Source: Pseudomonas phage sp. 30-2. Taken from it: a stretch of 64,000 nucleotides of DNA. The position numbers and the translations under genes are program-made. Shown here piece by piece: positions 5,605 through 16,530 of the stretch. The notes below the pieces were generated by a model. It saw nothing but the letters and a program-made list of their open reading frames with translations, was not told where the DNA came from and did not search any database. Positions within the stretch are counted from its first letter, which is position 1; each line of letters begins with the position of its first letter. The stretch lies in the sequence record LC727697.1; one strand, given 5' to 3'.

Positions 5605-6216
5605 TTAGCCATTCTCTTCTCTTACTTTTTTTGCAATCACTTTAAACAATCCTGGATTTACTTTAAGTGCTTGAGGAATTATATTATGTCGAATTTGATT
5701 TCTATTAAAATTAGTGTCTCGGTTACTAGGATCTTCTAACCATTGTACACCATTACTTTTCGCATATTTTTTAAATTCGTTTTTTGTAGTAAGCATAAAC
5801 GGTCGGATGACATTTTTTTTCCGATACGGAATGATACGAGGCGAACCGTGCATACTATAAAACAACCACGTCTCTACGTTGTCGTCTAGTGTATGTGCAG
5901 TCATGATTTCTAATTCATGAGAGTGCAGAAATTTATATCGTTCGTTTCGCCAATGTTCTTCCCAACTGCAACCTTTTGGTTTTTTTGTGTTAATGCAGTA
6001 TACATGGCAATTTATTTTATTGTCGCTACAATAATCTCTCACAAATTGCTCTGCTTTGATATCATACTCCGATCCGTGGTTTACATGAAAGACATCGAAG
6101 TTATTTTGTGGATATTTCTTTAAGAAGGACAATGCAACCATAGAATCAATACCGCCCGAAACAGCGATACCAAATTTCTGTCCATAATATGCAATGGGTT
6201 TTACTAACTTAATCAA
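5605..6216 (-). CDS. tilS: tRNA(Ile)-lysidine synthetase, minimal N-terminal PP-loop domain
   Basis: PP-loop SGGIDS; AHTLDDNVETWL; RPFM; WLEDPSNRD..RNQIRH match TilS signature blocks (AHxxDDxxET, RPLL, WxEDxSN..RNxIR); a QueC reading was considered and rejected. Confidence 0.8.
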   Translation of the reverse strand: MIKLVKPIAYYGQKFGIAVSGGIDSMVALSFLKKYPQNNFDVFHVNHGSEYDIKAEQFVRDYCSDNKINCHVYCINTKKPKGCSWEEHWRNERYKFLHSHELEIMTAHTLDDNVETWLFYSMHGSPRIIPYRKKNVIRPFMLTTKNEFKKYAKSNGVQWLEDPSNRDTNFNRNQIRHNIIPQALKVNPGLFKVIAKKVREENG

Positions 6217-6521
6217 ACCTAATATCCTTCCTTCATAACTAATCCAAGTACATAAGAAAAATTACACGATTCTAAACCAGTTCTTAAACTTTTTCTATAT
6301 ATATGATATGTAGTTAAGGTATCATCAGTAGTAACTGACAAGAATACCATATTGCTCCAGATATATATACATTTATAGTTCAACGATATGCGTTGTAACG
6401 CTAGTATGCTGTACATGTTTTTATGCACTGTATTGTTAGCTGTATTAGCGTTATACATGCGTTTGCACGTTATTGCAAACTTGCGTATAGCATAATGCAA
6501 ACGTGCAAAATAACGCATTTT

Positions 6522-6818
6522 TTAAATTCCTCTTATTTTATTAATTTCCCGCTCAACGGATGTCATAGCTCTACTAAAGGAAATATAAATGTCAGTGTCG
6601 TATAACCTCCATACAACAAATCTATATCTAACTAGAAATTTTATATATGTATACTTAACAGATATAAAAGATATATAAAAAATAGAATTAACTTTAATAA
6701 ATCTAGTTTCATTATTGATAAATGGGTATTCCTTGCCATAAATTTCGCACAAAAATGCCCCTTCGGGATTATCACCTACATAATACAATATCGGTTTCAT
6801 TTTAATTATATTTGCCAT
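6522..6818 (-). CDS. hypothetical protein
   Basis: ORF. Confidence 0.4.
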   Translation of the reverse strand: MANIIKMKPILYYVGDNPEGAFLCEIYGKEYPFINNETRFIKVNSIFYISFISVKYTYIKFLVRYRFVVWRLYDTDIYISFSRAMTSVEREINKIRGI

Positions 6819-6992
6819 TCAGGAAAGACACCCATACATCCGTCTTGAGATACGTACAAATACCTACCATACTTATCTGACTTTGTAACGTATACCCATG
6901 CCTTTTTAATGTTTAATCCGAAAATATAAAAAGTTATGGTTGTAGTATTTGCACAAATTGAATAGTTTAGTATTAAACTCATACTATACCTC

Positions 6993-7214
6993 TTACCAAT
7001 ACTTTTTTCTTCGTTTATTCTTCGGTAACAAATGTTCCCCGGATAATTTTTTTATCATTTGCCGTTGCTGCTCTTGTGCAGTTTGTTTACAAGACTTAGA
7101 ACAATATAGTCCCCAACCTCTTTTAACATCGGCAATTCTTACTTCGAATACATTATTACATTCTATATTATTGCATGTTATTTTAGTTTTCTTTCCCCTA
7201 GGCGTTGTTGACAT
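6993..7214 (-). CDS. small basic Cys-rich (zinc-ribbon-like) protein
   Basis: CNNIEC...CSKSC Cys pairs, Lys/Arg-rich tail. Confidence 0.45.
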   Translation of the reverse strand: MSTTPRGKKTKITCNNIECNNVFEVRIADVKRGWGLYCSKSCKQTAQEQQRQMIKKLSGEHLLPKNKRRKKYW

Positions 7215-7303
7215 TTAATTACTCGCAACAATACACTGTGTATTAGAATGCACAGTGTATATTATAGATAGTTGAATGCATGACTTACTTTGTTTCTTAC
7301 TAT

Positions 7304-7332
7304 AAAAAAAGGGCACAATGTGCCCTTTTTTT
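7304..7332. terminator. rho-independent terminator
   Basis: aaaaaaagggcacaatgtgcccttttttt. Confidence 0.75.
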
Positions 7333-7337
7333 ATATT

Positions 7338-7487
7338 TTACTTCTTGCCAGTGGAAGAAGTAATAATTTCTTTACCGCAAACAGTGCAACGATAGCCCTT
7401 AGTAAACACGTTATGCACACGATTACCTTTGCCGTACACACTGTCCTGGAAATCATGTGCGCATTTGCACGATTTGATATTATCCAC
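7338..7487 (-). CDS. unlisted small zinc-ribbon protein (49 aa, GTG start)
   Basis: Minus-strand frame VDNIKSCKCAHDF...YRCTVCGKEIITSSTGKK; GAGGT 5 nt upstream of GTG; stop abuts hairpin terminator 7304..7332; locally GC-richer. Confidence 0.35.
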   Translation of the reverse strand: MDNIKSCKCAHDFQDSVYGKGNRVHNVFTKGYRCTVCGKEIITSSTGKK

Positions 7488-8298
7488 GTTTACCTCTGCT
7501 AGTTAATGTGTTGAGTGTTTAGTATACTGTTTTATAACAACGAAATCTAGCATTTTTTTAAATTCTTATAACTGGTCCAGCCTAAGCCCCCTATTTCATG
7601 CGAAATATAAGTTGTATAATCATAATTACCTATACTCATCGATCTTGTATCATAAATCATACGTCTATACAAAACTATCCCTTTTTCTCCCCGGACCCAT
7701 ATACATGTATATATGGTACTTGGTTCTATGCATATTTGGCGTGCATTATAAGACAGTTTTAGGATCATATTTAGTTTTTACCTTAGCAAAAATAAATCCA
7801 AAATCATTTACAAATGATATAATGTAAACTGTATTACCTTTTATGTCTTTTTGTACATGTTCTACTATATGTAATTTTATAGAATTATACGATAATCCTA
7901 TAATAGAGGTATTGAAATTTGGATTATATGACATATTAGAATCCTTCTTATATGCAAATATTTATTGCTTAGATTCTTAATATATTATATCTATTAATAC
8001 GTTATAATGTAATTCAGAGACATTCAGGTTATATTTGTTTTCTAAATATAATCTCACTAAGTTTGTTTAGTGTTATTATCTTTTTTAGATTTATTTTCAT
8101 TTCTTTCTTCTATACAAAACGATAATAGGTTTATAACAGTTGGTAGTAAGCAACATGTAGCTAAATTAGAAACAATGTCAATTCTTATTAAACTATATAT
8201 TTTATTAAAAATGGAAATAAAAAAATTAGAATATTTAATAGAAACAACGATTGTACTATTTCTAACTACTCTAGATAATTTACATAATAATGATAGAT

Positions 8299-8529
8299 TC
8301 ATTTGTATAACTTATTTCTCAGATCAAACAACGACTGGCATTCCACACATTTTGTTGCACTTGGTAGTATACGTTTTCTTTCTTCTCCTATTTCTTCTCC
8401 GCAATCTATACATTCGGTATAGCCAGAATTTCTTGCCATTTCTTTTCGTATTTTACTTACAGCTTTTTCTACAATTTGTTCGTGGGTTTCAGCAAGTCCG
8501 CTGTCATCTATATCAAATTCTGAACTCAT
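8299..8529 (-). CDS. TraR/DksA-family C4 zinc-finger protein (start corrected to internal Met)
   Basis: CIDCGEEI...CVECQ four-Cys finger; the listed upstream Met lies inside the terminator hairpin 8604..8634, so MSSEF start with AAGGA SD is preferred. Confidence 0.7.
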   Translation of the reverse strand: MSSEFDIDDSGLAETHEQIVEKAVSKIRKEMARNSGYTECIDCGEEIGEERKRILPSATKCVECQSLFDLRNKLYK

Positions 8530-8603
8530 AAAACATTTCCTTGTTATTAAACGTCCATTATTTATTATTTGTATAATAGCATAAGAAAAATAAAAATACA
8601 ATA

Positions 8604-8634
8604 AAACATTGCCCGCATTAGCGGGCAATGTTTT
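8604..8634. terminator. rho-independent terminator
   Basis: aaaacattgcccgcattagcgggcaatgtttt. Confidence 0.7.
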
Positions 8635-8635
8635 A

Positions 8636-15546: not shown

Positions 15547-15615
15547 GTTTGAAACATTATATGAATATTTTATTTAGACTATTGTATCTCTTTAGATACA
15601 AATGTTATTTAAAAT

Positions 15616-15691
15616 TGGTGCCGACTGTGGGATTCGAACTCACGACCTACTGATTACAAGTCAGTTGCTCTACCAGCTGAGCTAAGACGGC
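15616..15691 (-). tRNA. tRNA-Thr (anticodon UGU), CCA encoded
   Basis: acceptor GCCGTCT, anticodon stem ACTGA/TCAGT, loop CTTGTAA, T-loop TTCGAAT. Confidence 0.8.
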
Positions 15692-15717
15692 ATATTGAAT
15701 ATACAACAAAGTGTAAT

Positions 15718-15793
15718 TGGCTGGCTAGGTAGGACTCGAACCTACGACCCAATGATTAACAGTCATTTGCTCTACCGACTGAGCTACTAGCCA
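15718..15793 (-). tRNA. tRNA-Asn (anticodon GUU), CCA encoded
   Basis: acceptor TGGCTAG/CTAGCCA, anticodon stem AATGA/TCATT, loop CTGTTAA, T-loop GTAGG-TTCGAGT-CCTAC. Confidence 0.85.
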
Positions 15794-15843
15794 TTTAATT
15801 TTAGAATAGTTTCCTATCTTGTTAAGTATTTATATCTTTTGTT

Positions 15844-15928
15844 TGGTACCCGAGACCGGACTCGAACCGGTACGCTGCGAAGCGGGAGATTTTAAGTCTC
15901 CTGTGTCTACCAATTTCACCACTCGGGC
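15844..15928 (-). tRNA. tRNA-Leu (anticodon UAA), second diverged copy
   Basis: same D-arm and anticodon arm as 15335..15419 but different acceptor stem (GCCCGAG) and variable arm. Confidence 0.85.
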
Positions 15929-15950
15929 TAAAAGCACAACATCTTAAAAT

Positions 15951-16027
15951 TGGTCCCTCGAACTGGATTCGAACCAGTGACCTAGCGATTATGAGTCGCG
16001 CGCTCTAACCAACTGAGCTACCGAGGG
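15951..16027 (-). tRNA. tRNA with CAU anticodon: Ile2 (lysidine) or elongator Met candidate
   Basis: body identical to 15470..15546 between positions 8 and 65; acceptor stem CCCTCGG/TCGAGGG differs. Confidence 0.8.
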
Positions 16028-16064
16028 GTTTTTTAACTTGTTAAATAAGCTGCATTATACGCTT

Positions 16065-16093
16065 ATTATACTAAAACTTTTAAGCTATTGCAA
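16065..16093 (-). promoter_or_regulatory. sigma70-type promoter P1 for tRNA operon (-35 TTGCAA, 17-bp spacer, -10 TATAAT)
   Basis: minus strand reads TTGCAA-tagcttaaaagttttag-TATAAT; lies about 35 nt upstream of the 5' end of the first tRNA. Confidence 0.65.
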
Positions 16094-16143
16094 CATTTTT
16101 TATTACGTTTTGTTTGTAAACTGTATTGCGTTGTTATGTGCTT

Positions 16144-16172
16144 ATTATACTAAAACTTTTAAGCTATTGCAA
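16144..16172 (-). promoter_or_regulatory. sigma70-type promoter P2, exact duplicate of P1
   Basis: second copy of the same -35/-10 pair within an about 79-bp tandem duplication. Confidence 0.6.
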
Positions 16173-16530
16173 CATTTTTTATTACGTTTTGTTTGTTGCT
16201 GTGTTATTGCGTTATATGTGCAAATTATACGCATACTTTTATATGAAAACTATACTATATTTACAATATTTTTGGAATGTACTTTTATATAAGTAGTGAA
16301 CAGAAAGTTATATAATATACACGAAATATATTTCATACACTTCGGTAATAAAAGTATTTAATTACCAGGTTCCCACGTTTATCTGGTAGAATTAGAGACA
16401 TTCGTTGTAAAATATAACTAAAATTGTAATGCAGTCTTACAACTCTACTTCTGCTGCTTATATGTAATATAGTTTCAAATGTAACTATTTTGTCGTTATT
16501 CTGTCTTATATAATCATAAGTGTTCATATA

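Follow-up and report, generated by a model that had tools for sequence, protein, structure and literature searches.

Why should a jumbo phage of Pseudomonas aeruginosa carry its own tRNA-Ile lysidine synthetase (TilS) together with three tRNA genes that all have the anticodon CAU? This question is raised by the 64,000-nt stretch of Pseudomonas phage sp. 30-2 analyzed here (LC727697.1; hereafter the window, to which all positions refer unless another contig is named), in which a short TilS gene and a tRNA gene cluster are both located on the minus strand. We found that this TilS contains only the catalytic domain, and that in other viral genomes the genes of its relatives are linked to CAU tRNA genes of the Ile2 type, the class in which lysidine at C34 would permit decoding of AUA. 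It is very likely that the phage possesses a kit composed of TilS and tRNA-Ile2. The best explanation of the locus as a whole, in which two CAU tRNAs with the same body (CAU-2 and CAU-3, hereafter the twins) are both tRNA-Ile2, appears reasonably probable.

The window shares 96.9-98.2% identity across 12 kb with ten Wroclawvirus jumbo phages, which include PA5oct, MIJ3, Callisto, Cassandra, and Paride, and by sequence it belongs to a PA5oct-like jumbo phage replicating in P. aeruginosa. The TilS gene of this phage group is already known. It is annotated in PA5oct, MIJ3, Callisto, and PAC2 as the same gene (99.5% identity), and the MIJ3 paper (2019) highlighted a "putative lysidine synthase" as new to phages, reported three tRNA-Met genes, and guessed at a role in host viability. 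The PA5oct paper listed the same 12 tRNAs, three of them as "Met(CAT)", and never mentioned lysidine. Both papers left TilS unconnected to the tRNAs and its missing domains unremarked, and we found no link between TilS and the CAU tRNAs in the literature searched. All three CAU genes are recorded as tRNA-Met in the public records of PA5oct, MIJ3, Callisto, Paride, and phi30-3; the programs named in those records and papers (ARAGORN and tRNAscan-SE) labeled the CAU tRNAs as Met, a label that does not separate Ile2 from Met.

The codon usage of the phage indicates which codons may require assistance. The guanine-cytosine (GC) content is about 31-33% in the phage and about 66% in the host. Among 16,693 codons in 103 open reading frames (ORFs) of the window, AUA is the main isoleucine codon, with 48.7 per 1000 codons (53% of Ile), compared to 0.9 per 1000 in P. 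aeruginosa; the initial annotation had proposed this comparison. The need of the phage for AUA reading is roughly 50-fold above host provision, and AUG (17.4 per 1000) has no obvious shortfall. Given this difference in AUA usage, an AUA-decoding kit makes sense. Other codons counted include UUA (39.5 per 1000) and AGA (16.8 per 1000). The earlier suggestion that the tRNA set suits codons ending in A or U agrees with this count, in which those codons are heavily used.

The 203-aa ORF is assigned by sequence and structural model as a TilS catalytic domain, and lysidine formation is its predicted activity. It scores 131.4 bits with TIGR02432 (lysidine_TilS_N; curated cutoff 93.6) and 126 bits with PF01171. 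The possibility that this is instead QueC or another PP-loop enzyme, raised with the initial annotation, was checked against the QueC, TtcA, TtuA, and 3'-phosphoadenosine-5'-phosphosulfate (PAPS) reductase models, none of which exceeds 31 bits. PHROGs, which has no TilS family, gave only weak matches to PAPS reductase and QueC (E 0.001-0.009). The protein aligns with residues 26-227 of 317 in Aquifex aeolicus TilS, 22-219 of 464 in Geobacillus kaustophilus, and 16-200 of 433 in Escherichia coli. The PP-loop S20-G21-G22-I-D24-S25 (SGGxDS) and the other canonical TilS motifs are invariant in 32 homologs. The gene uses a TTG start codon located 2 nt past an upstream stop codon and behind the Shine-Dalgarno-like run AAGGAAGGA; the resulting N-terminus (MIKL...) is kept in the homologs and matches the family consensus. 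The AlphaFold2 (AF2) model has a predicted local distance difference test (pLDDT) score of 94.7. It superimposes on A. aeolicus TilS (2e21/2e89) with a template modeling (TM) score of 0.82-0.84 and a root-mean-square deviation of 2.2-2.5 A, and on E. coli MesJ with a TM score of 0.80 (query-normalized). TilS structures are the closest matches, with TtuA next at far lower TM score and sequence identity.

The call of a single-domain TilS in the initial annotation was confirmed by the cutoff passed and by the catalytic-domain fold, and the missing part can be defined. When normalized to the TilS targets, the TM scores drop to 0.40-0.54, and the model covers only 40-54% of these targets (54% for A. 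aeolicus TilS). The full-length equivalog NF007942 yields 77.6 bits (cutoff 606), and the match is confined to its residues 18-204 of 439. The phage protein has no CTD1, which binds the anticodon stem and elbow, since it ends at residue 203, which aligns with A. aeolicus residue 227 (of 317); it also has no CTD2, the acceptor-stem-binding domain, the NF007942 score being below the cutoff. We considered a split TilS with its C-terminal domains encoded next door and rejected it, as the neighboring ORFs have no Pfam matches to those domains and other phages have a tRNA gene directly after TilS. A truncated pseudogene was likewise rejected, as 120 of the 120 best homologs are 179-253 aa long with a conserved C-terminus. 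Bacterial TilS proteins are either type I (NTD, CTD1, and CTD2; E. coli, P. aeruginosa, and G. kaustophilus) or type II (NTD and CTD1; A. aeolicus and Helicobacter pylori). The phage protein shares with them the PP-loop catalytic domain, the motifs, the fold, and presumably the reaction at C34 of a CAU tRNA, but has 203 aa rather than about 310-500, lacks any C-terminal domain, and falls outside both recognized types.

Such a protein could have derived from TilS and acquired another chemistry or target, such as an agmatidine-like or aminovaleramide-like modification of C34 or the modification of another cytidine. In favor of this, 5-aminovaleramide can serve as a substrate of E. coli TilS in vitro, and ava2C is found in the tRNA-Ile2 of some Pseudomonas. 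However, the model whose cutoff is passed is of the equivalog-domain type, the TilS motifs are invariant, the closest structures are those of TilS, Cys clusters of the TtuA/TtcA type are absent from the protein, and the gene linkage described below is specific to CAU tRNAs. We therefore regard a different chemistry as improbable.

ARAGORN predicted exactly 12 tRNA genes in the window; they span 11800 to 16027 and share the minus strand, and the Rfam model RF00005 recovers each of them with 54-74 bits (gathering score 29). The set of twelve with three CAU anticodons, as originally described, was thus recovered by both methods. In the direction of transcription, the order is CAU-3, Leu(UAA)-2, Asn(GUU), Thr(UGU), CAU-2, and Leu(UAA)-1, then Arg(UCU), then CAU-1, Pro(UGG), and Gly(UCC), and finally Ser(UGA) and Ser(GCU). 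The initial annotation had each of the twins following a tRNA-Leu(UAA); on the coding strand the order is reversed, and each CAU gene precedes its Leu gene.

For classification of the CAU tRNAs, the references were ten tRNA-Ile2 and nine tRNA-Met sequences from experimental work, those of the host included (supplement of PMC12514573), and one covariance model was built on each set. Both models are based on few sequences, and non-CAU tRNAs spread between -4 and +9 bits in the Ile2-minus-Met comparison, so the scores are taken as supportive only. CAU-2 scores 90.1 bits with the Ile2 model and 80.3 bits with the Met model (+9.8). Its acceptor stem GGGACUU/AAGUCCC contains G3:C70 (the Ile discriminator), A4:U69, and C5:G68, and its first part, GGGAC, resembles the GGGCC of the host tRNA-Ile2. 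The anticodon arm is CGCGA-CUCAUAA-UCGCU, and the acceptor and anticodon stems are near-identical to those of the tRNA that follows TilS in a large contig (L007; L-numbers are our labels for contigs and loci). From these features we assign CAU-2 with high confidence as a tRNA-Ile2 that is predicted to be lysidinylated, as had been anticipated for one of the CAU tRNAs, and the label of 15470-15546 should read tRNA-Ile2.

CAU-1 has the C1xA72 mismatch and A73 noted previously, as in bacterial initiator tRNA-fMet. Its anticodon stem has G30:C40 and G31:C39 but A29:U41, i.e., two of the three initiator G:C pairs, and its 3-bp D stem has G11:C24/C12:G23 rather than A11:U24/G12:C23, with purine 11:pyrimidine 24 kept. 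Its scores (Ile2 46.2 and Met 56.4 bits) are the lowest of the three CAU tRNAs on either model. By sequence, CAU-1 is initiator-like but not canonical, and the label of 13339-13415 should be initiator-type.

The distribution of short TilS genes in other genomes provides further information on the substrate. A protein search identified 735 relatives of the phage TilS at E<=1e-10. Among the best 120 of these, PF01171 is the sole domain except for overlapping PAPS-reductase matches in a few. The initial annotation regarded a phage-borne AUA-decoding kit as unusual, which does not hold: the TilS of this phage group was published in 2019, chloroviruses have one, and at least 440 contigs in IMG/VR encode a relative of the short form. 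Among 185,579 species genomes, the short form was found in five contigs (L093-L097), a lower bound obtained from one narrow peptide pattern. These five are from metagenome-assembled genomes of unrelated phyla, namely Spechtbacterales (candidate phyla radiation, CPR), Kiritimatiellae, Lentisphaerae, Woesearchaeota (an archaeon), and Pelagibacter, and three of them have a CAU tRNA gene 14-38 nt downstream of TilS; they are probably viral DNA mis-binned into cellular genomes. The short TilS family is large and almost entirely viral.

For linkage, we examined the +-10 kb surroundings of TilS in 83 loci, of which 70 contain tRNA genes. In 39 of those 70 loci, TilS has a CAU tRNA as its nearest tRNA, compared to a CAU share of 16% among the tRNAs there. 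CAU tRNAs lie within 150 nt of TilS on the same strand in 33 cases, and 15 loci have no tRNA other than a CAU tRNA within +-10 kb, in most cases at most about 50 nt from TilS. Adjacency was also observed in L002, L007, L093, L096, and L097. All 27 unique TilS-adjacent tRNAs have the loop CUCAUAA and 26 have a base other than C at position 3, the feature that discriminates tRNA-Ile(CAU) from Met and fMet (Silva et al.). All but one of the TilS-adjacent tRNAs score +4.6 to +21 bits for the Ile2 over the Met model, whereas values of -4.6 to -13.8 were obtained for the Met-like and fMet-like tRNAs of these loci. This conserved gene linkage across viral contigs is the strongest evidence that the enzyme acts on CAU tRNAs of the Ile2 type. 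Two points weigh on the other side: the loci are not all independent, which limits the reading of the enrichment (binomial p=4e-14), and in the phage studied here the TilS gene is 7-10 kb away from the tRNAs rather than adjoining them.

The linkage also bears on the role suggested by the MIJ3 authors, in which the phage TilS mainly boosts the modification of host tRNA-Ile2 or host viability and the phage CAU tRNAs are plain Met and fMet. This speculation is published, the databases label all three genes as tRNA-Met, and the host enzyme, a type I TilS, is slow (kobs/KM 0.3 uM-1 min-1, compared to 5.0 for E. coli). However, the Met labels do not distinguish Ile2 from Met, CAU-2 scores as Ile2 and carries G3:C70, and the linkage of the short TilS in viral contigs is specifically with CAU tRNAs of the Ile2 type. 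We consider a pure host-boosting role very improbable and retain the reading that the phage TilS serves phage-encoded tRNA-Ile2.

How many of the phage tRNAs the enzyme serves depends on CAU-3. The twins are identical at Sprinzl positions 8-65 and differ in the acceptor stem only, as described in the initial annotation; A73 and CCA are also shared, and the 12 differences are all within the 14 acceptor-stem positions (chance 4e-12). Four of the seven pairs are strand-flipped from CAU-2 to CAU-3 (G1:C72 to C1:G72, G2:C71 to C2:G71, G3:C70 to C3:G70, and A4:U69 to U4:A69). The twins have C5:G68 in common and differ at pairs 6 and 7, such that the acceptor stem of CAU-3 reads CCCUCGG/UCGAGGG. The shared body differs on average at 12.7 positions from the Ile2 and 14.6 from the Met references, and its nearest references are the tRNA-Ile2 of E. 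coli, Mycoplasma, and Borrelia. Its C27.U43 mismatch is present in three of the ten Ile2 references and none of the nine Met references. By sequence, CAU-3 is a hybrid with an Ile2 body and an acceptor stem typical of neither Ile2 nor Met. The original proposal had a Met tRNA retargeted to Ile2; the direction is not supported, as the shared body and the CAU-2 acceptor are both Ile2-like and CAU-3 is the odd one.

We slightly favor CAU-3 as a second AUA decoder, i.e., another tRNA-Ile2, that would depend on the phage enzyme. AUA rather than AUG is in short supply, and the other tRNA present twice, Leu(UAA), is that for the second most mismatched codon. MetRS needs the CAU anticodon only, so the acceptor stem would not set Met identity and the modification of C34 alone would decide. 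In Burkholderia cenocepacia, whose TilS is of type I, the change from G3:C70 to C3:G70 abolishes lysidinylation, and a tRNA-Ile2 with C3:G70, rejected by the full enzyme, is accepted once CTD2 has been deleted. As the phage TilS has no domain that reaches the acceptor stem, we infer that both twins would be lysidinylated. Tolerance of such acceptor stems is also suggested by other viral loci. The TilS-linked tRNAs of L027, L066, L072, and L085 are CAU tRNAs with C1:G72, and a CAU tRNA of an Alishewanella phage combines the acceptor GCCUCGU with a Borrelia-type Ile2 anticodon stem (+6.7 bits towards Ile2). Two Ile2-type genes beside a short TilS recur in L012/L013, L081, L005, and L093.

Several observations weigh against this reading. 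CAU-3 scores 79.3 bits with the Ile2 model and 78.8 with the Met model (+0.5; small models), and its placement by Hamming distance and the two covariance models is ambiguous. Its U4:A69 matches tRNA-Met of the host and E. coli, and C3:G70 is found in just one of the 27 TilS-adjacent phage tRNAs. The flips strike exactly the pairs read by type I TilS (3:70 and 4:69), which looks like selection on TilS recognition and would suit a Met role as well. A single-domain TilS would also have to reject tRNA-Met and tRNA-fMet of the host.

These observations are the basis of the main competing explanation, in which CAU-2 is a tRNA-Ile2 and CAU-3 is an elongator tRNA-Met that arose from an Ile2 gene via acceptor flips and escapes lysidinylation. 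It is favored by the presence of both C3:G70 and U4:A69 in tRNA-Met of P. aeruginosa and E. coli, by the loss of type I lysidinylation with the G3:C70 to C3:G70 change, by the avoidance of C3 in 26 of the 27 TilS-adjacent tRNAs, by the fall of the Ile2-minus-Met score from +9.8 in CAU-2 to +0.5 in CAU-3, and by the ability of MetRS to accept any CAU tRNA. However, with CTD1 and CTD2 absent from the phage TilS and the anticodon arms of the twins identical, a split between Met and Ile2 based on the acceptor alone would leave the host enzyme as the only obvious reader. AUG is not under-supplied, and the Met model gives CAU-3 a score no better than that of CAU-2 (78.8 and 80.3 bits). C1:G72 and C2:G71 are found in none of the nine Met references, yet are present in TilS-linked tRNAs, and the C27.U43 of the twin body is similarly foreign to those references. 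C3:G70 as proof of Met identity was rejected, since it is normal for E. coli-type Ile2 and is also carried by the Ile2 tRNAs in L098-L100 that share this body type. On balance, we consider a Met role of CAU-3 unlikely, albeit the most serious competitor to its role as a second tRNA-Ile2.

The conservation of these genes argues against decay. Compared to four relatives, the tRNA genes show 0.1-0.2% divergence and the surrounding sequences 1.9-3.1%, with no change in either twin. The two CAU genes and the two Leu genes are all intact, and purifying selection acts on them. On this conservation, CAU-3 as a decaying copy was rejected. A wider form of the same idea is that CAU-3 is no translation substrate at all, but a duplicate in decay, a decoy for a host nuclease that targets tRNAs, or an element for processing; the acceptor stem, which is atypical of both Ile2 and Met, speaks for it. 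However, CAU-3 folds into a perfect cloverleaf with encoded CCA, scores 66 bits on the Rfam tRNA model, has zero changes in the four relatives, and is the first gene after the putative tandem promoters described below. We find this explanation highly improbable, and the preferred reading remains that of a functional tRNA-Ile2.

The origin of the paired units is less simple than initially proposed. The Leu(UAA) copies are 79% identical, with 18 differences and compensatory changes in three helices. The earlier description placed the differences mainly in the acceptor stem and variable arm; the T stem and one D-loop base differ too. The flanks of the two CAU-Leu units do not align, the spacers are 50 and 22 nt, and the only element shared between the flanks is a 3' trailer AAUUUU that is common among the tRNAs here. 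A tandem duplication of the two-tRNA unit, as suggested, is plausible but is not demonstrated by these flanks and spacers. The CAU pair has no differences in 58 body positions, compared to 18 of 82 in the Leu pair (Fisher p=4e-5), which rules out a single duplication followed by even divergence. Such unevenness calls for gene conversion over the contiguous positions 8-65 of the CAU genes or, alternatively, for separate origins. Apart from the paired units, the D-loop base of tRNA-Asn at 15777 is unlike that common to PA5oct, phi30-3, Paride, and Callisto; this is one of only one to two tRNA differences in 961 nt.

In the mechanism that we propose, host-type promoters would drive the expression of phage tRNAs for codons ending in A or U, the CAU tRNAs included. 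The 203-aa TilS would adenylate C34 of a CAU tRNA and attach lysine, and the modified tRNA would be charged by the host IleRS and read AUA instead of AUG. CAU-3 would act as a second AUA decoder that is probably unusable by the acceptor-reading TilS of the host. AUA and UUA are the two codons with the greatest shortfall, and the doubled CAU and Leu(UAA) genes would serve them. A further-reaching idea, which we offer only tentatively, is that the viral TilS of about 200 aa represents an acceptor-blind third architectural class that has co-evolved with a private tRNA, with CAU-3-type tRNAs invisible to the host TilS and entirely reliant on the phage enzyme.

The features of the locus are listed below. 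Both copies of the 63-nt repeat contain TTGCAA-17-TATAAT on the minus strand, and from their sequence the repeats are likely tandem promoters of the tRNA unit for the host RNA polymerase (RNAP). A piece related to this repeat is found at 12367-12400, beside TTGACA-17-TATAAT. The promoter-like sites are consensus matches only, and their total count is not above that of shuffled controls. PA5oct lacks an RNAP of its own and is sensitive to rifampicin, and the promoter-like sites fit a dependence of the phage on the host RNAP.

Table. Position and supporting evidence of the TilS gene, the tRNA genes, and the putative expression signals in the window.
Feature	Position	Strand	Evidence or context
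TilS, N-terminal catalytic domain only, 203 aa	5605..6216	-	TIGR02432, PF01171, AF2 fold
tRNA-Ser(GCU)	11800..11889	-	ARAGORN, RF00005
tRNA-Ser(UGA)	11895..11984	-	ARAGORN, RF00005
Perfect TTGACA-17-TATAAT before Ser pair region	12418-12390	-	Consensus scan
tRNA-Gly(UCC)	13170..13243	-	ARAGORN, RF00005
tRNA-Pro(UGG)	13253..13329	-	ARAGORN, RF00005
CAU-1, initiator-like tRNA(CAU)	13339..13415	-	ARAGORN, RF00005
tRNA-Arg(UCU)	14311..14387	-	ARAGORN, RF00005
Promoter-like TTGACC-17-TATAAT before tRNA-Arg(UCU)	14467-14439	-	Consensus scan
Terminator-like hairpin and T run, directly after Leu copy 1	15296..15325	-	Consensus scan
tRNA-Leu(UAA) copy 1, last gene of six-tRNA unit	15335..15419	-	ARAGORN, RF00005
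CAU-2, predicted tRNA-Ile2	15470..15546	-	ARAGORN, RF00005, covariance models
tRNA-Thr(UGU)	15616..15691	-	ARAGORN, RF00005
tRNA-Asn(GUU)	15718..15793	-	ARAGORN, RF00005
tRNA-Leu(UAA) copy 2	15844..15928	-	ARAGORN, RF00005
CAU-3, tRNA(CAU), first gene of six-tRNA unit	15951..16027	-	ARAGORN, RF00005 (66 bits)
63-nt repeat, two copies, 97% identical, 79 nt apart	16055-16117, 16134-16196	-	Upstream of CAU-3

Two other genes on the minus strand are located between TilS and the tRNAs. One encodes a DksA/TraR C4 zinc-finger protein (8299-8628; 40.9 bits), and such a DksA-like factor may be of note in a phage dependent on the host RNAP; the other encodes a GDSL/SGNH hydrolase (8636-9274). A 161-aa ORF (16531-17016, minus strand) contains HExxH (WHEIGHYIHH) and weakly matches the anthrax lethal factor domain, with 20.2 bits and thus below the cutoff of 27.4, and may encode a small metalloprotease.

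Some of the contigs compared have additional translation-related genes. L005 (JGI 3300003177 DffDRAFT_1000006, 113 kb; 14841-15252) is phage-like and has a short TilS, 20 tRNAs, and a tmRNA gene (tag ANDNIAPKDYALVA); its two Ile2-type CAU tRNAs have their sole difference at position 1. In L007 (NCBI BBPE01000624.1, 428 kb; 10001-11749), a 253-aa TilS and a CAU tRNA are directly followed by two release-factor fragments (PCRF/RF-1), forming a small translation-gene cluster in a very large contig. L098 (IMGVR_UViG_3300020380_000001, 306 kb), a marine jumbo phage, has a 97-nt tRNA with the anticodon UUA, which reads UAA, at 8573-8669 on the minus strand, flanked by tRNA-Ser(GCU) and tRNA-Ser(UGA); this may indicate stop-codon recoding or suppression.

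Among known systems, a T4-like vibriophage also supplies an AUA-reading tRNA(CAU), with k2C34 shown by mass spectrometry, but relies on the host TilS, whereas the Pseudomonas phage brings its own enzyme. The tRNA-Ile of T4 and the ileZ of Stx phages are further phage tRNA(CAU) modified by the host TilS. Chloroviruses carry TilS with tRNA clusters, and the rationale is the same codon bias: the virus is AT-richer (40% GC) than its host (67% GC) and uses AUA 12-13 times as often, and 39 of 41 viruses have retained TilS (Duncan et al., 2020). The concept of a virus-brought TilS against host codon bias is thus already published. Unlike the phage, chloroviruses infect eukaryotic algae, and the TilS domain architecture and a dedicated CAU partner were not analyzed in that work. 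In green-algal plastids, tilS and trnI(CAU) are likewise co-retained in a small AT-rich genome (PMC13494906), but this enzyme is an organellar descendant of the cyanobacterial TilS, with no single-domain form described in that work. In a recent review, lysidine synthase is mentioned for giant viruses only. In the literature searched, we found no description of a single-domain TilS, its wide viral spread, its tight linkage to Ile2-type tRNAs, or acceptor-flipped twin tRNAs.

These results correct the annotation of "three tRNA-Met" in a phage group that is studied for therapy (PA5oct, Paride, and Callisto), and a small enzyme-tRNA pair could serve codon reassignment work. The TilS literature poses the question of how enzymes without the acceptor-binding domain discriminate tRNA-Ile2 from tRNA-Met. 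A TilS of about 200 aa beside its own presumed substrate in hundreds of viral genomes offers a compact system for this question, and natural twin tRNAs that differ in the acceptor stem alone provide a handle on the substrate choice of a minimal TilS. For the phage itself, the kit would explain how a genome with 31-33% GC expresses AUA-rich genes in an AUA-poor host. If the viral enzymes are indeed an acceptor-blind class, they would define the minimal determinants of lysidinylation and constitute a natural orthogonal enzyme-tRNA pair, through which AUA decoding may be timed or privatized by the phage.

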